Below are positions 13,406-48,068 of a stretch of 64,000 nt of DNA, piece after piece (within the stretch, counting starts at the first letter, position 1; each line of letters opens with the position of its first letter). Origin of the DNA: Novosphingobium sp. (GTDB lineage Bacteria; Pseudomonadota; Alphaproteobacteria; Sphingomonadales; Sphingomonadaceae); contig NZ_CBDCBI010000001.1 of assembly GCF_965214355.1 (NCBI RefSeq), positions 9,587 through 73,586 on the forward strand, in the 5' to 3' direction. Under the pieces are notes generated by a model, which did not search any database, had not been told where the DNA came from, and was given only the letters and a program-made list of their open reading frames with translations. Position numbers and translations under genes: made by a program.

Positions 13406-13884
13406 GCCGTGCGTGGATCTTTCCCATCCTGATCGCGGGCATCATCGCCATTGGCGTGGCGGTGATGGGCGCGACGATCACCGATATCGGTCCGTGGTAT
13501 CATGGCCTTGCGCAACCGCGGTGGGCACCGGCAGATGCCGTCTATGGCCTGGCGTGGACAGCGGTTTATGGCTTCGCGGCATTGGCGGGCGTTACCGCCT
13601 GGCTTGCCATGCCGCGGTCAAAGGACCGCGAATGGCTGTTGGGCCTGTTTGCGTTGAACGGTTTTCTGAATATCTTGTGGAGCCTGTTGTTCTTTCGATT
13701 TCACCGGCCGGATTGGGCTGAGATCGAAGTCATGGGGCTGTGGTTGTCGGTGGCAGCGCTGGTCATCACCATCTGGCGCCGTTCAATGACAGGCGCACTC
13801 TTGCTGCTGCCCTATTTGCTGTGGGTCATGTATACCGGATACTTCAACATGATCATCGTCCGGCTGAACGGGCCGTTCTCCTGA
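13402..13884 (+). CDS. tspO: Tryptophan-rich sensory protein TspO
   Basis: WYHGLAQPRWAP, WTAVY, NILWSLLFF and LLPYLLWV; ATGA overlap with bchP. Confidence 0.92.
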   Translation: MSRAWIFPILIAGIIAIGVAVMGATITDIGPWYHGLAQPRWAPADAVYGLAWTAVYGFAALAGVTAWLAMPRSKDREWLLGLFALNGFLNILWSLLFFRFHRPDWAEIEVMGLWLSVAALVITIWRRSMTGALLLLPYLLWVMYTGYFNMIIVRLNGPFS

Positions 13885-23715: not shown

Positions 23716-23729
23716 AGGTAGCGGTACCA
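23716..23729. promoter_or_regulatory. XylR (LacI-type) operator 1
   Basis: AGGTAGCGGTACCA upstream of the GH3 gene; near match to WGRTAGCGCTAYCW. Confidence 0.65.
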
Positions 23730-33827: not shown

Positions 33828-34907
33828 ATGATGAGCACCAAAGGATCGCGCCGACAAAGCAGCGCACCTACGATCGCCGATGTTGCAGAGCATGCCGGCG
33901 TTTCGCCGATGACGGTCTCGCGCGTGATCAACGACCACAAAACCGTGCGTCCCGAAACGCGGGAACGTGTCGAACAGGCCATTGCCAAGCTGAATTACGA
34001 ACCCAGCCCGGCGGCGCGGACGCTGGCAGGTGCAAAAGAAACCCGTATCGGCCTGCTGTATTCCAACCCTTCGGCGTCGTACTTGTCCGAATTCCTGATG
34101 GGCAGCCTGGATCAGGCAAGTCGGCTCAACGTCCTGCTGACTGTTGAAAAATTTGCGGATGACATGACCGTCGACCGGGTCATCGACCACTTGCACCGGG
34201 CGCGCGTGTTTGGCGTGGTGCTGCCACCGCCGCTGTGCGATTCAAACGACATGCTCGCTGCGCTCAAGGCTGCATCGATCTACACGGTTGCCGTTGCCAC
34301 CGGCCATATCCGGACCGATGTGTCCTCGGTCAATATCGACGATCAGCTCGCCGCCGAGGAAATGACCCGCCATCTTTTGACGATGGGGCACAAGCGGATC
34401 GGGTTCATCAAGGGCAACCCCGATATCTCGGCGAGCGAACGCCGCTTTGCCGGATATTGCGCCGCGCTGGCAGAGGCGGGTGTGCCGTTCGATCCGGCGC
34501 TGGTTGCGCAAGGGCTGTTCACATACCGTTCTGGCCTCGATGCGTCGGAACACATCCTCGACCAGGCCGTGCCGCCCACCGCGATCTTTGCCAGCAACGA
34601 CGACATGGCAGCCGCAACCATGGCAATCGCGCATGGGCGCGGGCTCGATGTGCCCGGCGACCTTACCGTTTGCGGGTTTGACGATACCCCGCTGGCGACC
34701 GCAATCTGGCCCGAATTGACGACAATCCGCCAACCGATCAGCGATATGGCGCGCTCGGCGGTGGATCTGCTGGTCCAGCACCTGCGCAATGGCACCCCGG
34801 CCGACGACGCGGATCCCGCAGAGGCGGTGACCCACGTCCGCATGGATTATCAGTTTGTCCGCCGGCAATCCGACGCCGCGCCAAGGCGCAAGCCGCGCAA
34901 GCGTTAG
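33828..34907 (+). CDS. xylR: LacI-family transcriptional regulator, probable XylR
   Basis: PTIADVAEHAGVSPMTVSRVIN, LNYEPS, IFASNDDMA and ELTTIRQP; located centrally among the operator-bearing genes. Confidence 0.88.
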   Translation: MMSTKGSRRQSSAPTIADVAEHAGVSPMTVSRVINDHKTVRPETRERVEQAIAKLNYEPSPAARTLAGAKETRIGLLYSNPSASYLSEFLMGSLDQASRLNVLLTVEKFADDMTVDRVIDHLHRARVFGVVLPPPLCDSNDMLAALKAASIYTVAVATGHIRTDVSSVNIDDQLAAEEMTRHLLTMGHKRIGFIKGNPDISASERRFAGYCAALAEAGVPFDPALVAQGLFTYRSGLDASEHILDQAVPPTAIFASNDDMAAATMAIAHGRGLDVPGDLTVCGFDDTPLATAIWPELTTIRQPISDMARSAVDLLVQHLRNGTPADDADPAEAVTHVRMDYQFVRRQSDAAPRRKPRKR

Positions 34908-38454: not shown

Positions 38455-38468
38455 CGGTAGCGCTACCA
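38455..38468. promoter_or_regulatory. XylR operator 4
   Basis: CGGTAGCGCTACCA upstream of the esterase-GH9 pair. Confidence 0.8.
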
Positions 38469-38503: not shown

Positions 38504-40102
38504 TTACTGCAGATCGAGCACGACCACCGACATCGGCGGCAGTGCAACCGCCAGTGCGCCGCCTTTCACTTGCGCGCCGTGGAACGGCATCGGCACAAGC
38601 GCATCGGGGTGATCGAAATCGTTGTGCGCGTCCATCGCCAGTGCGGTCAGGATACGCCCGGAAACCGAGCCGGGGCGCAGACCCGCCAAGGTCATGGCAA
38701 CCGGTATCGCGCGGTGCGGATCGAGATTGGCCAGCGCGACATGCATCCGCCCGCCCGTGTCGCGCACCGCCGAGGCACTGATCGCGGGCAGGGCGGTGTC
38801 GCCGTTGCGATAGACCGGCGATTGCAGATCGATCGGCAGCGTCGTTGCATCCTGCCAGGGCTTGTACAGGTCGAACACCCAGTACGTCGGCGTCTTGACC
38901 ATGCGAACGCCATCGGTCAGCAGCATCGCCTGCAGCACGTTGACCATCTGCGCGATCGCCGCCATTTTCACGCGGTCTGCATGATGCGCAAAAATGTTGA
39001 GGTTCAGCGCGGCGACAACGGCATCGCGCAGGCTGTTCTGCTGGACCAGGAAGCCCGGATTGGTGCCGGGCGCCGGGTCGTACCACGTGCCCCACTCGTC
39101 AACGACCAGCCAGGTCTTTTTGGCCGGGTCGTATTTGTCCATGATCGCCGAATGGCGCGTGACGAACTCTTCCATCTGCAAGGTATGCGCCATCGTTGCC
39201 GCCCACTCGCGTTCGGTGAAGCCCAGCGCCGGTCCCTTGTCGTTCCAGTTGGCATCACGCGGGCGGGTGTAATAATGCAGCGACAGGCCGTCGATAGCCT
39301 TGCCCGCCAGACGCATCATCGTGTCGGTCCATTCATAATTGGAATCGCTCGGCCCGCTGGCAATCTTCAGCATCGGTCCCGCGCCCGATTTGGCAAACTG
39401 GGCATAGCGATTGGTCAGGTCCGCTGCATATTCGGCGCGCATATTGCCGCCGCATCCCCACAGCTCGTTGCCCACGCCCAGGTACGTCACCTTGAACGGC
39501 GCGGGATGGCCGTTTGCGGCGCGTTCCTTGGCCAGGGTCGATCCGGTCGGGGACGTCAGATATTCGATCCACGCGGCCGTTTCGCTCGGCGGCGCACTGC
39601 CGACGTTGGCCGACACATAGGCCTCTGCGCCCAGCCGTTCGACAAAACCCATGTATTCCTGCGTTCCGAACGCATTGTCTTCGTTTACACCGCCCCAATT
39701 GGTGTTGATCTTGACCGGGCGCGCGGCGGCCGGCCCGATGCCGTCGCGCCAGTGGTATTCGTCGGCAAAGCATCCGCCGGGCCAGCGCACCACCGGGACC
39801 TTGATCGCGCGCAACGCCGCGATGACATCGCTGCGATAACCGTGGTCGTTGGGTATTGCCGAATTCGCGCCGACCCAGACCCCGCCGTAGATCCCGTGCC
39901 CCAGATGTTCGGCGAACTGGCCAAACACCTGGCGGTTCATGACCGGCCCGGGGCGGTCGGCATGGATCGTCCCCGTCGCCGTCTCGGTTGCGGCGCCGGG
40001 CGCGGCCCCGGGCGCGGCTTGCGCCAGGACCATCGGCGCGGCCATCGCCGTCGCCAGACCGAGGATGGCGGTGATCCCGCGCAAGGGGGGCTTTGCAAAC
40101 AT
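38504..40102 (-). CDS. abfA: GH51 alpha-L-arabinofuranosidase
   Basis: GQFAEHLG, VRWPGGCFADEYHW, GVGNELWGCGG and VDEWGTW; signal peptide from ATG 40102. Confidence 0.92.
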   Translation of the reverse strand: MFAKPPLRGITAILGLATAMAAPMVLAQAAPGAAPGAATETATGTIHADRPGPVMNRQVFGQFAEHLGHGIYGGVWVGANSAIPNDHGYRSDVIAALRAIKVPVVRWPGGCFADEYHWRDGIGPAAARPVKINTNWGGVNEDNAFGTQEYMGFVERLGAEAYVSANVGSAPPSETAAWIEYLTSPTGSTLAKERAANGHPAPFKVTYLGVGNELWGCGGNMRAEYAADLTNRYAQFAKSGAGPMLKIASGPSDSNYEWTDTMMRLAGKAIDGLSLHYYTRPRDANWNDKGPALGFTEREWAATMAHTLQMEEFVTRHSAIMDKYDPAKKTWLVVDEWGTWYDPAPGTNPGFLVQQNSLRDAVVAALNLNIFAHHADRVKMAAIAQMVNVLQAMLLTDGVRMVKTPTYWVFDLYKPWQDATTLPIDLQSPVYRNGDTALPAISASAVRDTGGRMHVALANLDPHRAIPVAMTLAGLRPGSVSGRILTALAMDAHNDFDHPDALVPMPFHGAQVKGGALAVALPPMSVVVLDLQ

Positions 40103-40154: not shown

Positions 40155-41168
40155 CTAGTGCAGGTTGCGCAGCAGATGCATGACGCGTGCCCGGATCGCG
40201 CCGTAGTTCTGCCGCAGCGGGCCGAGCAGGCCGTGCTTGTCCGGGGGCAAATGCGCCAGCGGGTGCCCGTCTTGGCGAAAGACATAGTGATCGAAAAACG
40301 CGCGCCAGGCGTTGCGCTCCGCCAGCGGCCGCTCGCTCATCGTGATCATGGCCAGCAGCAGTGCGGTATAGGGCGAATCCGGTCCGGCGGCGAAAGCATC
40401 CCACCAGTAATTGACCAGGCCATTGACCGGCGCGGTCGCCTCGACTTTGTGCCACCACAACTTGGGCAGATACAGCGCATCGCCCGCGGCAAGATCGGCC
40501 ACCAGCATCCGTTCGCGTGCATGCGCAAAGCGCGGATAGGCGCCGGCGTCGCCCGACGATGCGGCCAGGCTGACCGGTTGCCCCGCCATCGTGTGGTCGA
40601 TCGGCCCGACATACAGATTGCCGATGGTATCGGGCGGAAACAGCGTAAACCGCCGTTCGCCGGCGACGACACAGGCCAGATTGTCGAGCGTGTCATAATG
40701 CGCAGAAACCGTCGAAGCGTGGCCAAGCCACAGCCGTGGCGCAATCGCCGGCGCCAGCAACGGCATCGGGTTGGCCTGTGCAAACCCCGTCAGATACGCT
40801 TCTGCCGGGATCGACCCGATATAGATCGTGTCGTCGCCCATTGCGGGCGGAGACAGTATCGCCGCAATGGCATCGCGCAATTGCATGGTGCGGCGCTCGA
40901 AATTGAAGCCGGCCAGGTCGTCGTTGTAGTAGTACGTGCCCTTGATCTGCGGCGAACCGATGAAGGCCTCGACGTCGCCGGTCGCGGCAAACTGGTCCAG
41001 ATAGGCGCTCAATGCCTGATCAGAGTGCGTGGCGGCGCGGGTGATCGGCCATTGCGTAACCAGGCCGCGAATGATGACCGGGCGGCATCCGGCCACGACC
41101 TCTGCGTAAAATTGCGCAGGATCGCGCAAGCTGGCGCCGTCGATCGTGGCAGGCGAGTGCCCTGTCAT
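40155..41168 (-). CDS. Cupin-like (JmjC/Cupin_8) protein
   Basis: RLWLG, AHYDTLDNLACVV (HxD), RRFTLFPP, LYLPKLWWHKV and VNYWW. Confidence 0.85.
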   Translation of the reverse strand: MTGHSPATIDGASLRDPAQFYAEVVAGCRPVIIRGLVTQWPITRAATHSDQALSAYLDQFAATGDVEAFIGSPQIKGTYYYNDDLAGFNFERRTMQLRDAIAAILSPPAMGDDTIYIGSIPAEAYLTGFAQANPMPLLAPAIAPRLWLGHASTVSAHYDTLDNLACVVAGERRFTLFPPDTIGNLYVGPIDHTMAGQPVSLAASSGDAGAYPRFAHARERMLVADLAAGDALYLPKLWWHKVEATAPVNGLVNYWWDAFAAGPDSPYTALLLAMITMSERPLAERNAWRAFFDHYVFRQDGHPLAHLPPDKHGLLGPLRQNYGAIRARVMHLLRNLH

Positions 41169-41187
41169 CGCGCACGCATGGGGGATA

Positions 41188-41886
41188 TCAACCCAGATCC
41201 AGCAAGGCGCGGTTTTTCATCTGGGCAAGCCCGTTGACGTGCCTGACCGATGCCATCATCAGATAGATCAGCTTCAGATACCCGCGCCGAAAGAGATCGG
41301 TGACCACGGCATCGTCCAGCTGCTGCAAGGTGTCCTGGCTGATGGTGTAGAGCCCCACCACATCACGCCGCGTTCCGTCATCGAATGCTACATCGATCGC
41401 AATCGGCTCGATCAGCTTGTGCTGCAACAGCGTGTCGATAAACGCCCTGGTCGCAGTTGCCCCGGTCGTCAGCGCCCGCATCGTGCCCACAATGCTGTCA
41501 AGGTACGGGCTGGCCGATCCGTCGGGGCCAAACAGCGGCTGCCCTTCCATCCGGCTTATGCGCGGATGATCGAGGTCGATGGCCAACTCGTTGCCCGCTG
41601 TGAAAAACGGCCCACGCTGCAGATTGAGCGGACGATAGATGTCAAGCGGCGCACGCTTGCCCAGAAACAGGTTCTCTTCTTCATCGAAGCCCATCATCGC
41701 ACCGCAGTAAAAAGCTCCGGTATCGGCATCTTTTGAGAAGAAGAGCGGGTAATGCAGTATCAGATTGGTAAATTCCGGCAAAACCACCGGCACGAAGCGT
41801 ACCGCATCGCCAAGATGCGCTGCGCTATCCGTTTTGATACGAATATCCTTGTGGGCTTCACCATTGAGCACTGCGATATTTGGCAT
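41188..41886 (-). CDS. SapC family protein
   Basis: VPVVLPEF, HYPLFFSK, MGFDEEENLF and RGPF; located between the halogenase and cupin genes. Confidence 0.82.
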   Translation of the reverse strand: MPNIAVLNGEAHKDIRIKTDSAAHLGDAVRFVPVVLPEFTNLILHYPLFFSKDADTGAFYCGAMMGFDEEENLFLGKRAPLDIYRPLNLQRGPFFTAGNELAIDLDHPRISRMEGQPLFGPDGSASPYLDSIVGTMRALTTGATATRAFIDTLLQHKLIEPIAIDVAFDDGTRRDVVGLYTISQDTLQQLDDAVVTDLFRRGYLKLIYLMMASVRHVNGLAQMKNRALLDLG

Positions 41887-41906
41887 ACGGGAAGGACAGT
41901 CCAAAG

Positions 41907-43448
41907 CTAAATTGCCTGAAAGCCGTATTGATGTATCTTGGCGATCAGATCACGGTTTTTCGGCAGTTGTGTCCGCATTTTTCGCGTGAGGGCGGTATTT
42001 TCCTGAAACATGCGTGCTGCAATCAATGACGATCGGGCGTTTTCGTCCGGCTCGACTTCGGTTTTGAAGCCCATGCCGTACAAGACGTATTGATAGCTGG
42101 CGGCGGGAAAAACCTCCTCCAGACGGTCGAATTCGTCAAAAAACCACGGCGACTGGTATTTCCACAGCGTCAGCAGATTTTTTAACCGATCGGGAATGCT
42201 GGATGCTTCCAGATTGTCGCGCCAGAACGGCGTGTCGGTCCGCTTGGTCAGCACATAATGCAGTTTCAGGAAATCGATGATCCGACCCCAACGGTAGGAA
42301 GTCGTCTCGTTGAACCGCGCTGCGATTATGTCCATCACTTCGCGGTTGGCCGGCATCTGCTCTGCGATCAATTTGGCCGACAGCTCGACCAGGACGATCG
42401 CCGATGCCTCCAGCGGTTCGAGAAAACCTGCCGCCAGACCCACTGCAACGCAATTCTTTTTCCAGAACACCTCCCGGTGCCCCGAACGGATCGGAATTTT
42501 GCGGACCGTATTGCGCTGATGACTTTTGCCGACATAGCGCATCAGCTCGTTATGCGCCTGGTCTTCGCTGATATGGTTGCTGGAATAGACATGGCCCACG
42601 CCGCGCCGCGTGGGCAGGCCGATATCCCAGATCCACCCTGCGCTTTGCGCGGTCGACAGCGTTTCCGATGCCATGGGGGCATCCTGCGTATCGTAATCGA
42701 CCTGTACGGCCAGCGCCGTGTCGCAAAACAGCACGTCGCTGCAATCCTTGAACCCGACGCCCAGCGTCTTGCCCAGCAATAGCGACGAAAAACCGGTACA
42801 GTCGATGAACAGATCCCCGGCGATTTCGCCGGCTTCCCGCGTCAGCACGCTGGCGATATCACCCGTATCGGTCTGGTTGACGGCCACGACGTCTGCGAGC
42901 ACGTGGCGGACATGCAGCTTTTCCGTGCAGTGTTTCTGCAGGAACGGCGCAAACTTGCCCGCGTCGAGATGATACGCATAATTTGCCATCGCGTCATATT
43001 CGGCGGTCGCGATCGTCTTAGGCGCCAGGCCCTCGTCGCACAGCACGCCCTGCGGGCTGACCGCGTCGCAAAACGTGCCGACCTGCTCTGCTGCCAGCCA
43101 GTGCGGCGCCAGATTCATCTGGGTAAAGCCCTGCGGCATCATCAGCGGGTGATGATAGGCATCGCCTTGCGCACCCGTCGTCCAATGGGCAAACTTTGCG
43201 CCCTGTTTGAACGCCACGTCGCAATGACGGAAAAACTCGGTTTCCGACACACCCATCTTGGCCAGCGTCGAGCGCATCGTCGGCCAGGTGCCTTCGCCTA
43301 CGCCGATAATGCTGACCGTCGGGGATTCGACCAGAGTGACGGTAAAGCCCGACTTCATAAGGCCCTGGTGGCGGGCGGCAATGACGCCGGCCGTCAGCCA
43401 TCCGGCCGTACCGCCACCAACGATCACGATATTCTTTACTGCGTGCAC
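41907..43448 (-). CDS. Tryptophan-halogenase-family flavin-dependent enzyme
   Basis: IVIVGGGTAGW, IGVGEGT, FKQG (catalytic-Lys region), FIDCTGF, GWIWDIG and FLEPLEAS; GTG start at 43448. Confidence 0.9.
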   Translation of the reverse strand: MHAVKNIVIVGGGTAGWLTAGVIAARHQGLMKSGFTVTLVESPTVSIIGVGEGTWPTMRSTLAKMGVSETEFFRHCDVAFKQGAKFAHWTTGAQGDAYHHPLMMPQGFTQMNLAPHWLAAEQVGTFCDAVSPQGVLCDEGLAPKTIATAEYDAMANYAYHLDAGKFAPFLQKHCTEKLHVRHVLADVVAVNQTDTGDIASVLTREAGEIAGDLFIDCTGFSSLLLGKTLGVGFKDCSDVLFCDTALAVQVDYDTQDAPMASETLSTAQSAGWIWDIGLPTRRGVGHVYSSNHISEDQAHNELMRYVGKSHQRNTVRKIPIRSGHREVFWKKNCVAVGLAAGFLEPLEASAIVLVELSAKLIAEQMPANREVMDIIAARFNETTSYRWGRIIDFLKLHYVLTKRTDTPFWRDNLEASSIPDRLKNLLTLWKYQSPWFFDEFDRLEEVFPAASYQYVLYGMGFKTEVEPDENARSSLIAARMFQENTALTRKMRTQLPKNRDLIAKIHQYGFQAI

Positions 43449-43508
43449 GGCAACCACCATCAAAACGCAAGGGTAACGCACGATCCGAAATTCCGGCCAG
43501 ACAAAAAT

Positions 43509-43534
43509 GGGGTTGCTCCCGAAAGAGCAACCCC
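43509..43534 (-). terminator. Intrinsic terminator after the TonB-dependent receptor gene
   Basis: GGGGTTGCTC-CCGAAA-GAGCAACCCC stem, followed on the minus strand by ATTTTT. Confidence 0.75.
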
Positions 43535-43556
43535 GGATTTGGAAAACCTTGCCGGC

Positions 43557-46523
43557 TTACAGTTTCATGTGCACGCCGAAGGTGAAGCTCCGGCCGAATT
43601 TGACGACATCGAGCACTTGCTCCTTGAACCGCCCGTGCGTGCTGTACGTCGAATTGTTGAGGTTGAGCGCCTCGAAGTAGACGTTGAGGTGCTTGTTGAC
43701 GTCATAGCTGGTGCTGAAGTCAACCTGGGTATTGGCATTCACGAACGTCGGCTCCGACCCAAAGGCCGAATTGTTCTGCTGCTGGCCAAAGTGATCGAGG
43801 TAATCGGCGCGCCAATTGACCGCGACACGAGCCTGGAAGCCATATTTGTCGAAGAATGCCACGGCGTTGACCGAGTTGGCAAGGCCGGTCACCGCAAAGT
43901 TGCTGACGTCGGTATTGGCCTTGTCATACGGTTTGTTCGTACCAACAAGGGTTCCGTTGACCTGGGCCCCAAAGCCCGACTTGCCAAAGACGTGCTGGAT
44001 GGCGCCTTCAAGACCATAGACCGCAGCCGATGGACCATTGATGTTGGTCGTGACACTGAATTGGCCGGGCTGCCCGGTCGTTGGATCGATTACATTGTTA
44101 ATGGTTTGACGAGTCGTACCACCAATAATGAAGTTGCTGACCTGTTTGCCATAGGCGGCAAGCGAGATGTACGAGTTGGCCGCATAGTACCATTCCGCAC
44201 CCAGATCCAGGTTGTCCGAGAGATAAGGCTGCAAGTTCGGATTGCCGCCGGTTGCGTTCAAACTGTTCAGGCGTTGGGTCGCGCCGATATTGAGAACCGG
44301 GGTCAGCAGGTTGAGCGGCGGACGGGTCAATGTGCGTGACGCATCGAACCGAATCTTGAGGTGATCGGTTGCCGACAAGACCAGATCGAGGTTTGGCAGT
44401 AGATACCGATACACGTTCTTGCTGGTGACGGGGGTGATGTCACCAGTTTTGACCTGGAATGCAGTGTGATCGCTTGACTGAATAGTCAGCAACACTGGCA
44501 GGGTAGCCAGGCCAGAGGATCGCGTTGTAGTCTGCTCGAAACGCAACCCCATGTTGATCTTCAGTGGCATGTCACCGACACGCGTTTCATCGTTGATATT
44601 GAGGAAGGCCGAGGCAGTGCTTTCCTCGATCGTCTGGAAGCTGCCTGTATTGGGAGCCGTGCGATAGATGCCATCGAATGCCGGTATACAACACGCGGTG
44701 TTTGCACCCGGAATCACTTTGGTCTGCGGATTGCCGAGCCCTTGCAGATAGTTCAGCACCGAATACGGATTGAACGCCAGAATATTGGCAGGCAGATTGC
44801 CCCCGTTCTTGAAGCCGTTGATGAAATTCGCCGTACTGAACGAATTGGTGAACAGGTTCTGCGGTAGGGCGACACCGCCGGGATTGTTCGATGCCGGACC
44901 GTACCCGGCATACGCCTGCCAGTCATTGTTGGCGAATGTGTCATATTCGCTGAGGTTTTTCTTGTCATTGACGTACTGAACACCAAATTTGATTTTCAGC
45001 GTGTCTTCGGACCAGGCGCCTTCAAGTTTGCCTTGAGTAACGACGTCCTTGTTCTGCTGGCTAGTAATCGGCAGAACATGCGAGCCAATGAGGCCGTTGT
45101 TGATGAACATCGCCGCGTTACCGTTTGGCCCGATACCCGTGGGATACGGCAAACTGCCAGGCGCAACGCCGGCAATGCCGACATTGGTGCCATTGATGCC
45201 GTTCGGGCTCGACGGCCCATAGCCGACATCGACGTCGAGGCTGCTCAATTCACCCTTGGGATTCAGTTGCGATTCAGCGCGATCAAGGTCGAGAACGACA
45301 TTGAACTTGGGGCTGACCGTCCATTTGGTGTTGAAGCCGACTTCGTTGTTGACGATGACCGACGAATTGATCTGTGACTGGAAATCGGTCGGCGTGTTGG
45401 CCTGAGAGAAGTTCGTCAACGTGCCGTTGGCATTGCGCTCGACCCCGGTCAGGGAGCTGGCGTTGAACCACACCGAGTAGCCATATTGCTGCTGGCTAAG
45501 GTGATCGCGCGAATAGTCGTCGTTCAGCGTCATTTCGATCGAGTCGCTGGGACGCCATTGCAGGACCAGGCGGCCGTCGATGCGCTTGTCCTCGGTATGC
45601 TCCTGATACACGCCATAATCCTGGATCACCCAGGACGCCGGATTGGAGGGAGGATTGGTCTTCGCACCCGCATCGGTGAACCCGGCTGCCATCGCGGCTG
45701 CTGGATCTGCAAACTGGCCGGGCGCCATATACCTGTTGCCCTCCCAGCCCTGGATGTTGACGTGATTCTGGCGCGTTTTCTTGTCGGAATAAGCAAAGTC
45801 GGCCAGAATACCGATCGTGTTGTTGGCAAATGTATCGCTGATCAACGCGCCACCGTTTGGCGTAACGCTCTTGGCATCGGGCGAATACTTGCCGGAAAAC
45901 GATGCCGATGCGCGCAGGCCCGGATGATCGAACGGCTTGGGGTATTTGATATTGATCGTCGCGCCGATCGCACCGCTGGACAGCGTCGCGTCTGGCGTCT
46001 TGAGAATGTCGACTTCGCTGACGAAATCGGACCCGACCGCGCTGAAGTCAAAGCCGCGGTTGCTGGTGCCGGTCGAAGCCTGGCGCCCGTCGTACAGCGT
46101 TTCGTTGAAAGTCGGTCCGAAGCCGCGAACCGTGATTTCGGTCGCATCGCCGGTCGAGGTCGGCAGGCCGCCGAGGCTGCTTGCACCGCGACTGACCGAA
46201 ATGCCCGGAATACGCTGAACCGCAGCGGCGAGGTTCGAGTCGGGAAACTTGCCGATATCTTCGGCCGAAATCGCGTCGATGACGCCAACGGCGTTCTTCT
46301 TGATATCCAGGCTGCGCTGCAACGAGCCACGAAGCCCGGTAACAATGATTTCCGACGGTGCCGGCGCGTTGGTTGATGTGATGTCTGGTGCTGCCTGTTG
46401 CGCAGCGGCCTGTTGGGCAAATGCGCCTGGCGTTACTGCGCCGATAGCTACGGTTGAGACCCCACCCAACAAAACAAGGCGCGCAAGACGAAGCACGGCT
46501 GTCATGTCCCCATTTTTATTCAC
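43557..46523 (-). CDS. TonB-dependent outer-membrane receptor
   Basis: Signal peptide; TonB-box-like EIIVTG, DAISAEDIGKFPDSN, plug motifs and C-terminal GRSFTFGVHMKL. Confidence 0.95.
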   Translation of the reverse strand: MNKNGDMTAVLRLARLVLLGGVSTVAIGAVTPGAFAQQAAAQQAAPDITSTNAPAPSEIIVTGLRGSLQRSLDIKKNAVGVIDAISAEDIGKFPDSNLAAAVQRIPGISVSRGASSLGGLPTSTGDATEITVRGFGPTFNETLYDGRQASTGTSNRGFDFSAVGSDFVSEVDILKTPDATLSSGAIGATINIKYPKPFDHPGLRASASFSGKYSPDAKSVTPNGGALISDTFANNTIGILADFAYSDKKTRQNHVNIQGWEGNRYMAPGQFADPAAAMAAGFTDAGAKTNPPSNPASWVIQDYGVYQEHTEDKRIDGRLVLQWRPSDSIEMTLNDDYSRDHLSQQQYGYSVWFNASSLTGVERNANGTLTNFSQANTPTDFQSQINSSVIVNNEVGFNTKWTVSPKFNVVLDLDRAESQLNPKGELSSLDVDVGYGPSSPNGINGTNVGIAGVAPGSLPYPTGIGPNGNAAMFINNGLIGSHVLPITSQQNKDVVTQGKLEGAWSEDTLKIKFGVQYVNDKKNLSEYDTFANNDWQAYAGYGPASNNPGGVALPQNLFTNSFSTANFINGFKNGGNLPANILAFNPYSVLNYLQGLGNPQTKVIPGANTACCIPAFDGIYRTAPNTGSFQTIEESTASAFLNINDETRVGDMPLKINMGLRFEQTTTRSSGLATLPVLLTIQSSDHTAFQVKTGDITPVTSKNVYRYLLPNLDLVLSATDHLKIRFDASRTLTRPPLNLLTPVLNIGATQRLNSLNATGGNPNLQPYLSDNLDLGAEWYYAANSYISLAAYGKQVSNFIIGGTTRQTINNVIDPTTGQPGQFSVTTNINGPSAAVYGLEGAIQHVFGKSGFGAQVNGTLVGTNKPYDKANTDVSNFAVTGLANSVNAVAFFDKYGFQARVAVNWRADYLDHFGQQQNNSAFGSEPTFVNANTQVDFSTSYDVNKHLNVYFEALNLNNSTYSTHGRFKEQVLDVVKFGRSFTFGVHMKL

Positions 46524-46614
46524 TTTGCTCTCCCACTTTTAATTTTTTTCAGAATTACGTCAGAGGTGCGGCGCAATCGATGGCTGACAAAGCCCGCTTT
46601 ATCAGTGTTTCCAT

Positions 46615-46628
46615 TGATAGCGCTACCA
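46615..46628. promoter_or_regulatory. XylR operator 5 (TonB-dependent receptor promoter)
   Basis: TGATAGCGCTACCA. Confidence 0.82.
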
Positions 46629-46761
46629 ACTGCGATAGATATGCGTGAATTTGCGACGATTGCAACCGAAAAATGGGGCTATGATACACTTCGCCGACAA
46701 TCCCGTCAGGAATGGCACAAGCATCGCCGCCGGCCCGCGTCTGACCACGCCGATGCGTATC

Positions 46762-46806
46762 CGATTGCACCAGCAGCGATTGCACCAGCAGCGATTGCCC
46801 CGGCTG
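46762..46806 (+). repeat. 15-bp tandem repeat x3
   Basis: CGATTGCACCAGCAG, CGATTGCACCAGCAG, CGATTGCCCCGGCTG. Confidence 0.85.
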
Positions 46807-48054: not shown

Positions 48055-48068
48055 AGGTAGCGCAATCA
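48055..48068. promoter_or_regulatory. XylR operator 6 (divergent oxidoreductase/esterase)
   Basis: AGGTAGCGCAATCA (reverse complement TGATTGCGCTACCT). Confidence 0.7.

Follow-up and report, generated by a model that had tools for sequence, protein, structure and literature searches.

A flavin halogenase, SapC and JmjC oxygenase gene cassette behind a TonB-dependent receptor in a predicted XylR regulon of Novosphingobium

To ask what a flavin-dependent halogenase, a SapC family protein and a JmjC-type oxygenase might do in a hemicellulose-uptake locus, we analyzed a stretch of 64,000 nucleotides from Novosphingobium sp. (hereafter the window), in which these three genes follow a carbohydrate receptor on a plasmid-type replicon of 126 kb (also termed a chromid). 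An initial reading of the sequence alone (the sequence-only reading) had described the trio as an undescribed pathway, a label that has to be withdrawn: a neighbourhood of JmjC, one to three halogenases, a TonB receptor and SapC was defined in 2010 (Iyer et al., 2010; PMC2938197), and the type B halogenase relatives BrvH and Xcc4156 have been assayed and crystallized. The gene set is thus known since 2010 and widespread, and the window holds a clean additional copy of it. That no physiological role is assigned to the trio agrees with the literature that we searched, and full-text searches returned no functional study of the cassette. The features on which the argument rests are the following, listed from the promoter side of the receptor onwards.

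46681 to 46709, minus strand: tentative sigma-70-like hexamers CTGACG-17-TATCAT, upstream of the operator (consensus scan, 9/12 matches; weak evidence)
46615 to 46628, no strand assigned: xyl-box operator TGGTAGCGCTATCA of the LacI-family XylR type, an exact pattern match 92 nt upstream of the receptor start codon
43557 to 46523, minus strand: TonB-dependent receptor, 988 aa, TonB-Xanth-Caul carbohydrate-scavenging subfamily (Pfam Plug and barrel; TIGR01782)
43500 to 43534, minus strand: intrinsic terminator in the receptor/halogenase gap (11-bp GC-rich stem, 4-nt loop, T-run)
41907 to 43460, minus strand: flavin-dependent halogenase of type A (the 2PYX clade), 517 aa, PF04820 (E 1.6e-122), without signal peptide
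41188 to 41886, minus strand: SapC family protein, 232 aa from the ATG at 41886, PF07277, cytoplasmic (ORF open from a TTG at 41904)
40155 to 41168, minus strand: JmjC/Cupin_8 Fe(II)/2-oxoglutarate oxygenase (the cupin), 337 aa, PF13621 (E 4e-58)
38504 to 40102, minus strand: GH51-type alpha-L-arabinofuranosidase (Alpha-L-AF_C and ASD1 domains) with signal peptide, without an operator of its own
38455 to 38468, no strand assigned: following xyl-box TGGTAGCGCTACCG, 35 nt beyond the GH51 stop, in front of the esterase-GH9 genes
33828 to 34907, plus strand: LacI-family regulator (LacI HTH and Peripla_BP domains), presumed to be the XylR that acts on the xyl-boxes

The receptor, halogenase, SapC, cupin and GH51 genes are all co-oriented on the minus strand in this order, as the sequence-only reading had placed them. 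The GH51 gene sits beyond the 40155-46628 range, with a signal peptide that begins at Met62 of its long ORF, and the esterase-GH9 genes come downstream of it, after the next xyl-box. Spacing is tight, at about 20 nt both between halogenase and SapC and between SapC and cupin, which leaves no precursor-peptide-sized gap inside the trio; the gap of about 95 nt from receptor stop to halogenase start is filled by the terminator, and a search for a remnant of a type B halogenase between cupin and GH51 found just 52 nt there. In the gene calls from 19 to 57 kb we found no flavin reductase, NRPS or PKS, nor any precursor peptide gene, ligase or exporter of a RiPP/NRPS cluster, which bears out the earlier remark that such genes are missing nearby. 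The genome carries two Flavin_Reduct genes, both chromosomal, and a single halogenase, a single Cupin_8 and a single cassette-type SapC.

To see how this copy compares with others, we surveyed 80 SapC neighbourhoods across Pseudomonadota. The cassette, which in the window as elsewhere comprises a co-oriented TonB-class receptor, a PF04820 halogenase, SapC (PF07277) and a JmjC/Cupin_8 protein, was present in 23 of them, always behind a receptor and in the same order. It was found in at least 17 of the 301 Pseudomonadota genomes sampled, frequently as several copies, and where a genome holds several cassettes each stands behind a different receptor. Such sets lie behind sugar-type TonB receptors in both Alpha- and Gammaproteobacteria, and the recurrence stated in the sequence-only reading holds. 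The 173 flanking ORFs of the 23 cassette loci include GH3 (12), GH1 (5) and GH5 (3) glycosidases and 7 LacI regulators, together with GH20 and NagA/SIS/kinase genes, GH67 and sugar MFS transporters. Since these flanks vary between β-glucoside, chitin and xylan genes, with LacI-type regulators, the cassette is independent of the type of cargo. Fuller cassettes have up to two halogenases and two oxygenases; judged by its genes, the window copy is evidently a reduced cassette, with a type A halogenase, SapC and the JmjC oxygenase and with neither a type B halogenase nor DUF6445.

We next consider regulation. The xyl-box motif has 21 matches at ≤3 mismatches, compared with 3.7 expected in shuffles, none of which reaches 21. 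The operator predicted ahead of the run was found where the receptor promoter region would be expected, as a palindromic xyl-box, with a LacI-family regulator in the same locus; promoter-like hexamers across the region were no more numerous than chance in the consensus scan. No further xyl-box occurs between 38469 and 46614, so the box upstream of the receptor is the only one for the entire receptor-to-GH51 run and the next one follows GH51. Because it has no operator of its own, GH51, the obvious hemicellulose gene, would depend on transcription through the cassette. On a plasmid of Novosphingobium humi, receptor-halogenase A-GH3 and SapC-cupin-GH27 diverge from a single xyl-box, with 35-71% identity to the window counterparts, and xyl-boxes also lie close upstream of cassette receptors in two other sampled loci (L011 and L072). 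Operator placement and the Novosphingobium humi plasmid, on which the same genes flank one xyl-box, make the predicted wiring of the cassette into the XylR regulon well supported, as the sequence-only reading had it.

The proposed intrinsic terminator was likewise recovered: a hairpin at 43534-43509 (-21 kcal/mol alone) is followed by ATTTTTGT, and the region folds at -33.1 kcal/mol (z = -4.28). Of 28 cassette loci, about 17 have a hairpin with a T-run behind the stop codon of the receptor. Such hairpins are also seen behind receptors without a cassette, so this one may do no more than terminate the receptor gene. We propose that xylose would free the operator at 46615 from XylR and that transcription would then start upstream of the receptor; the strong hairpin would stop most transcripts, and a minority would read through into halogenase, SapC, cupin and GH51. 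Partial read-through, which we infer from this arrangement, would therefore yield the receptor in quantity and the three cytoplasmic proteins in catalytic amounts.

The halogenase ORF opens at a GTG at 43481, and the ATG at 43460 fits the N-terminus of PDB 2PYX. All motifs named in the sequence-only reading are present (GGGTAG, FKQG and FLEPLE, the last as FLEPLEASA, beside GWIWDIG), the GxGxxG FAD-binding motif taking the form VGGGTAGW. In the alignment, FKQG and EPLE correspond to FKLG and EPLE of Xcc4156 and its clade, where the catalytic Lys (K79 in PrnA/RebH) and Glu (E346 in PrnA) lie. Across 17 type A halogenases the catalytic residues are conserved. For the Xcc4156 clade they have been mapped onto RebH (PMC7336383). 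The reported WIWDIG in place of WxWxIP is a real residue change, but it is no one-off deviation: all 17 type A sequences have Gly or Ala where Pro stands in 17 of 18 type B sequences. We therefore regard WIWDIG as a conserved signature of the type A clade that gives no indication of decay. The Gly of the Fx.Px.Sx.G halide-site motif is also absent, EPLEASA having Ala at that place, where type B, like BrvH, has Ser. The two clades (31-37% identity between the window enzyme and type B) hold fixed positions, with type A always between receptor and SapC and type B (Xcc4156/BrvH, canonical WxWxIP) after the cupin; type B is absent from both the locus and the genome. With FADH2 from a chromosomal flavin reductase, O2 and halide, the window enzyme would be expected to halogenate through its conserved Lys and Glu.

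In the cupin, the iron triad His157/Asp159/His240 and Arg172 are invariant in 19-20 cassette cupins. Arg172 is a candidate for the basic residue that binds the C5 carboxylate of 2-oxoglutarate: it aligns at the position held in FIH by a Lys (K214). The AF2 model (pLDDT 83) has the JmjC double-stranded beta-helix fold, for which Foldseek returned TYW5, FIH, JMJD5 and JMJD7 (E about 1e-19 to 1e-20, TM 0.55-0.7), and the PDB sequence matches are the same four proteins. The cupin would thus probably use Fe(II), 2-oxoglutarate and O2. SapC also gave a confident model, which matches no solved structure; H18, E44, N78 and D110 are invariant in it. Its gene occurs without the cassette in 56 of the 80 sampled loci, and on the chromosome of the window's own genome too; because SapC also occurs alone, its function is not tied to receptors. 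The neighbours of the 56 orphan genes reflect lineage synteny only (DEAD-box helicase, FAD-linked oxidase, response regulator). Cassette-type and orphan SapC differ at G32, D33, P114, R115 and G148, positions that include no aromatic, Asn, Lys or Arg site suggestive of modification, and SapC was accordingly set aside as the substrate. An apparent SapC fusion ORF in sampled locus L062 proved to have no Pfam domain besides SapC.

What, then, would the trio act on? As receptors for different glycans are found with this one cassette, the sugar cargo would not be the substrate. BrvH and Xcc4156, whose active sites are open, do not accept free tryptophan, and peptide substrates were suggested by their authors (PMC7336383). 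Since type B rejects free tryptophan and the relatives of the cupin act on macromolecules, the substrate would most likely be a polypeptide and less likely a tRNA. Our tentative main reading, to which we give a probability of roughly 30%, is that the trio tailors, at a low level, a macromolecular substrate that belongs to the uptake route. Of the candidates, the receptor precursor ahead of Sec export would be the simplest, and SapC would then serve for recognition or as a scaffold. The narrower version, in which the cassette acts in the cytoplasm, ahead of Sec export, to halogenate and hydroxylate the receptor precursor or a different exported partner and SapC is the substrate-recognition subunit, is distinctly doubtful. 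The receptor scores 569 bits for TIGR01782 (cutoff 310) and has a signal peptide and an EIIVTG TonB box. In the alignment, no column sets the cassette-linked receptors apart from the unlinked ones; the top columns reach 55-79% in linked versus 0-20% in unlinked receptors, and the window's receptor lacks most of them. This comparison is a weak test, because the cassette could act in trans on paralogues. Near-identical receptor paralogues occur both with and without the cassette, and the cassette label requires at least nine changes on the receptor tree. We know of no report of a halogenated or hydroxylated TonB receptor; if the narrower version were true, such enzymatic modification of side chains would be without known precedent among outer-membrane transporters.

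Another explanation is that the trio tailors or detoxifies small aromatics that enter with the glycan, by halogenation and hydroxylation in the cytoplasm, for example arabinoxylan-derived ferulate or p-coumarate or the aglycones of aryl beta-glycosides. We consider both the explanation and these candidates possible but on the unlikely side. BrvH and Xcc4156 brominate free indoles and phenol-type compounds in vitro (PMC7336383), the regulon contains two BD-FAE-type esterases and GH51, GH43 and GH3 enzymes for decorated xylan, and GH1, GH3 and glycoside MFS transporters in many cassette loci are typical of aryl-glycoside use. However, the cassette also occurs in chitin/GlcNAc loci, in which no aromatic moiety is expected, and the relatives of the cupin act on macromolecules. 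Every CAZyme and both esterases of the regulon have signal peptides, whereas halogenase, SapC and cupin have none, and the regulon's sole inner-membrane transporter is an MFS of the xylose type. The suggestion in the sequence-only reading that imported aromatic substituents are modified is thus weakened by the chitin and beta-glucoside loci that carry the cassette and by the export of the glycosidases and esterases away from a cytoplasmic trio.

It is more improbable that the cassette makes a halogenated, hydroxylated metabolite that the adjacent receptor imports, a siderophore-like compound or signal derived from an amino acid, as Iyer et al. inferred from the neighbourhood (PMC2938197). Full cassettes with up to two halogenases and two oxygenases do resemble tailoring pathways. 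Against this, the receptor belongs to the carbohydrate subfamily TIGR01782 and not to a siderophore type, control lies with sugar repressors and a xyl-box, each of several cassettes per genome stands behind a different receptor, and neither the window genes nor the 25 commonest Pfam families per flank batch include an NRPS, ligase or exporter.

Less probable again is a role of the cupin as an FIH-like sensor of O2 and 2-oxoglutarate that hydroxylates a regulatory or translational protein or a tRNA, assisted by halogenase and SapC; the cell would in this way adjust glycan uptake to its oxygen and carbon status, and the tie to the receptor would be a regulatory one and not a structural one. Its fold and sequence neighbours (FIH, JMJD5, JMJD7, TYW5), the need of both enzymes for O2 and the existence of SapC without receptors are consistent with such a role, which leaves unexplained the strict place behind receptors and the two position-specific halogenase clades; nor is any regulator a constant neighbour. 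Finally, that the trio is a laterally acquired passenger without a hemicellulose role, silenced by the terminator or transcribed independently, is very improbable: the strong terminator between receptor and trio, a GC dip at 42-46 kb (0.56-0.58 versus 0.62-0.67) and a tree in which the halogenase groups with copies from other classes and away from the other sphingomonad type A copy would fit, but all ORFs are intact, the catalytic residues are invariant, GH51 lies downstream without its own operator and the rearranged XylR locus of Novosphingobium humi keeps the same genes at the identities given above.

Tailoring of a macromolecular substrate, our preferred reading, would concern a cassette that is wired into the glycan-uptake loci of aerobic heterotrophs, for plant, algal and chitin glycans. 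The window copy is a favourable test system, being single-copy, in a short operon on a plasmid-type replicon and with xylose as the defined inducer predicted through XylR. Because the genome has one halogenase, one Cupin_8 and one cassette-type SapC, no paralogue would hide the effect of a deletion. Handles for biochemistry come from the position-specific split of the halogenases into two clades and from a SapC fold without a solved relative.

Among known systems, the closest is the neighbourhood of Iyer, Abhiman, de Souza and Aravind (2010), which has the same four families in one co-oriented block and, like the cassette surveyed here, is sporadically distributed in Alpha- and Gammaproteobacteria with signs of lateral transfer. 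The window differs from it in having one halogenase (type A), no DUF6445 second dioxygenase, GH51 afterwards and a XylR operator, and its sugar-type receptor and regulation do not fit the siderophore interpretation. The best PDB match of the halogenase is 2PYX (E 8e-165), a Shewanella frigidimarina 'tryptophan halogenase' from structural genomics, followed by 9LU2 (E 1.6e-137) and 9LTB (E 2e-134), for which the literature search returned no paper; 2PYX and 9LU2 share GWIWDI[GA]L, FKQG and EPLEA with the window enzyme. Xcc4156 (PDB 6Y1W) and BrvH (6FRL) belong to the same superfamily and have the same catalytic Lys and Glu, but with WxWxIP and EPLESTS where the window enzyme has WxWxIG and EPLEASA. 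A 'tryptophan halogenase' was also hit by a single unconfirmed transposon insertion among colony-morphology mutants of Sphingomonas sp. LM7 (PMC11340318). The protein hydroxylases FIH, JMJD7 and JMJD5 and the tRNA wybutosine hydroxylase TYW5 share with the cupin the beta-helix and the HxD...H iron triad, with a basic residue at the putative 2-oxoglutarate-binding position, although identity is 17-22%, the residue there is Arg and not Lys and the window protein is bacterial and cytoplasmic. The regulation has its counterpart in the xylose CUT loci of Xanthomonas campestris (XCC2828) and Caulobacter crescentus (CC0999), which share a palindromic xyl motif (Blanvillain et al., 2007; PMC1790865); the main text of that paper does not mention halogenase, SapC or cupin genes. 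As in those loci, the window places a receptor of the subfamily to which those xylose/xylan-induced receptors belong behind a conserved palindromic operator, with induction in the window as the prediction.

The sequence-only reading had described a co-oriented run of receptor, halogenase, SapC, cupin and GH51 genes, and this block is real and accurately described, with its genes, domains and motifs found at the locus. It spans 46.7 to 38.4 kb on the minus strand of the window, which is carried by the 126,451-bp contig C1. Its features, including a xyl-box (a palindromic operator presumed bound by the LacI-family regulator XylR), are as follows:

46615-46628, xyl-box operator, 92 nt ahead of the receptor's start codon
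46523..43557, minus strand, TonB-dependent receptor, 988 aa, plug and barrel (TIGR01782 'TonB-Xanth-Caul', 569 bits vs cutoff 310)
Open from GTG 43481, with ATG 43460, minus strand, PF04820 halogenase (E 1.6e-122)
Start most likely ATG 41886, minus strand, SapC (PF07277, E 7.5e-60)
Between SapC and GH51, minus strand, Cupin_8/JmjC protein (E 4e-58)
Start 40102, minus strand, GH51-type arabinofuranosidase with an Alpha-L-AF_C domain
33828-34907, outside the block, LacI-family regulator gene

Read from ATG 43460, the halogenase has the same N-terminal length as its best solved relative; the SapC start is preferred because homologues open M-x-N-x-x-L-L-N, and the GH51 start codon is the Met ahead of a signal peptide, 52 nt past the cupin stop. 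Spacers of about 20 nt separate halogenase from SapC and SapC from cupin. All the regulon's glycosidases and esterases carry signal peptides; the halogenase, SapC and the cupin carry none.

A hemicellulose/xylose regulon surrounds the block: two GH3, GH9, GH27, GH43 and GH51 enzymes, one SASA-type and two BD-FAE-type esterases, an aldose epimerase, a xylose-isomerase-like protein, an FGGY kinase, a Gfo/Idh/MocA oxidoreductase and a xylose-type MFS transporter. The palindrome TGGTAGCGCTAYCA has sites at 23716, 30074, 31654, 38455, 46615, 48055, 51158 and 55280, and the motif has 21 matches with at most 3 mismatches (3.7 expected), a number reached by no shuffle. The xyl-box-like site at 48055-48068 (AGGTAGCGCAATCA, with 2 mismatches) has an esterase gene on one side and, on the other, the divergent oxidoreductase gene, whose product carries a Tat-like signal (SRRGVL). 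Between the oxidoreductase gene and the receptor promoter region, at 46762-46798, a 15-bp unit, CGATTGCACCAGCAG, is perfectly repeated in tandem (2.5 copies). Between the receptor operator and the site at 38455, 35 nt beyond the GH51 stop, we found no xyl-box with up to 3 mismatches. Since GH51, an obvious regulon member, has no operator of its own, xylose control would reach it only via transcription across the three cassette genes (halogenase, SapC and cupin). On this map, the cassette follows the receptor inside a predicted transcription unit under XylR control. The region's strongest terminator-like element falls between receptor and halogenase (11-bp stem with 7 GC pairs, 4-nt loop, then ATTTTTGT; fold of -33.1 kcal/mol and z = -4.3 for the 67-nt region), and we infer that it may act as a leaky terminator and keep the receptor at a high level relative to the enzymes.

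A Novosphingobium humi plasmid (NZ_CP103869.1, 424817-444194) carries these regulon genes with the cassette split in two. One strand carries the receptor (43% identity to the window's), a type A halogenase (71%; the type is explained below) and GH3 (71%), the opposite strand SapC (35%), cupin (51%) and GH27 (70%). The two sets diverge, and the intergenic region that they share holds a single xyl-box, AGGTAGCGCTATCA, at locus position 13534. This arrangement is independent support for the predicted XylR control, and it indicates that the linkage outlasts loss of receptor co-transcription.

The window's halogenase (GGGTAG, FKQG, GWIWDIG, FLEPLEASA) has as its best solved relatives 2PYX (E 8e-165; Shewanella frigidimarina, structural genomics), then 9LU2 and 9LTB; BrvH, Xcc4156 and PrnA are far more distant. 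In a tree from 80 SapC neighbourhoods, SapC-adjacent halogenases form two clades split by a branch of 100% support. Type A, the 2PYX clade (n=17, the window's among them), in every case has the receptor on one side and SapC on the other, and carries GW[IV]WDI[GA]L, FKQG and EPLEA[ST]x; type B, the Xcc4156/BrvH clade (n=18), lies after the cupin or, in two loci, directly behind a receptor, and carries the canonical GWQWRIPLQHR, FKLGI and EPLESTS. Both keep the catalytic Lys and Glu. The WIWDIG that the sequence-only reading took as a departure from WxWxIP is present as claimed but is typical of type A; because W[IV]WDI[GA] is common to that clade, it is a conserved signature and not erosion. 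One type B member has E values of 5e-171 to Xcc4156 and 5e-132 to BrvH. Both enzymes brominate indoles, not free tryptophan; their active sites are open and their native substrates unknown (PMC7336383). The window's halogenase is the only one in this genome, which lacks type B.

The cupin's PDB sequence matches are JMJD7, FIH, JMJD5 and TYW5, and its AlphaFold model (pLDDT 83) matches the same four at E about 1e-19 to 1e-20; these are hydroxylases of proteins or tRNA. The 19-20 cassette cupins compared all share H157, D159, H240 and, in the 2OG-binding position, R172. The halogenase and cupin are an intact, conserved, cytoplasmic pair of predicted O2-dependent enzymes, accompanied by SapC. Orphan and cassette SapCs differ at G32, D33, P114, R115 and G148 (positions as in the window's SapC, counted from TTG 41904). 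A second, orphan SapC of this genome (chromosome, G000:C2:2647529-2648185; L005:9455-10258) adjoins an FAD-linked oxidase and lies away from any receptor, halogenase or cupin gene.

SapC is present in 95 of an even set of 301 Pseudomonadota genomes, from which the 80 neighbourhoods were drawn; 23 hold the cassette, and 56 (~70%) hold orphan SapC with no receptor, halogenase or cupin nearby. The cassette genes keep a constant order: receptor, [type A], SapC, [cupin, type B], often then DUF6445, which occurs in 6 cassette flanks and after type B in at least 6 sampled loci. At L085:11230-13497 (+), a type B halogenase (residues 14-464) and DUF6445 (530-751) share a single unbroken 756-aa ORF, which looks like a Rosetta-stone fusion linking a putative fifth member to the halogenase. 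The window's form (type A-SapC-cupin, then GH51) was not found elsewhere in the sampled loci and is a reduced version. A sphingomonad locus (L127, G300:C1:1113500-1120700) has a receptor followed first by a 227-aa ORF without Pfam match and then by a cupin that shares 47% identity with the window's; a halogenase fragment lies at the opposite side. It may be a further variant with a SapC replacement. Among 173 ORFs around the 23 cassette loci are GH3 (12), GH1 (5), GH5 (3), GH20 with NagA/SIS/kinase genes, GH67, sugar MFS transporters and 7 LacI regulators, and the cassette therefore goes with receptors of beta-glucoside, chitin and xylan loci. Two loci (L011, L072) likewise have xyl-boxes a short way upstream of the cassette receptor. 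To judge from these flanks, the same gene set accompanies receptors for different glycans.

We also considered the receptor itself as substrate. On a tree of 49 receptors (29 with cassette genes, 20 without), the cassette label is clustered (10 changes vs 15.7 in shuffles; 1/500 as low), requires at least 9 changes and differs within close paralogue pairs. No alignment column is common to linked receptors and absent from unlinked ones; the best occur in 55-79% of linked vs 0-20% of unlinked receptors, and most are absent from the window's. A hairpin and T-run follow the receptor stop in ~17/28 cassette loci and also most unlinked receptors. The receptor-as-substrate idea is therefore without support from sequence signatures, though it could still hold if a cassette worked in trans or on a feature that is not conserved. 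In the 4.27-Mb genome, a search with a profile built from cassette-linked receptors gives just four ORFs of at least 550 aa at E <1e-5, unusually few for a sphingomonad, with the cassette receptor at 968 bits and the next at 350 bits.

Our tentative reading, with a probability of about 0.3, is that the cassette would be co-expressed at low level via terminator read-through and would tailor a macromolecule belonging to the uptake route, whatever the cargo. That it instead acts on small aromatics from decorated glycans is rather unlikely. The siderophore or metabolite proposed in 2010 is improbable, and an FIH-like O2/2OG-sensing role, for all the cupin's likeness to FIH, slightly more so; a silent passenger, set beside an intact enzyme pair, is highly improbable.

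GC is 0.56-0.58 over receptor and halogenase (42001-46000) vs 0.62-0.67 in neighbouring regulon genes, a drop consistent either with separate acquisition or with amino-acid bias in a barrel protein. In the tree, the window's halogenase is sister to the Novosphingobium plasmid copy, nested among copies from other classes and not grouped with the other sphingomonad type A gene. This placement agrees with the lateral spread of the neighbourhood noted in 2010 (Iyer et al., PMC2938197). The recurrence and unknown role put forward by the sequence-only reading hold, but the pathway is not undescribed: the block has already been published as a 'known unknown', and the value of this copy lies mainly in its being a non-redundant, inducible genetic system.
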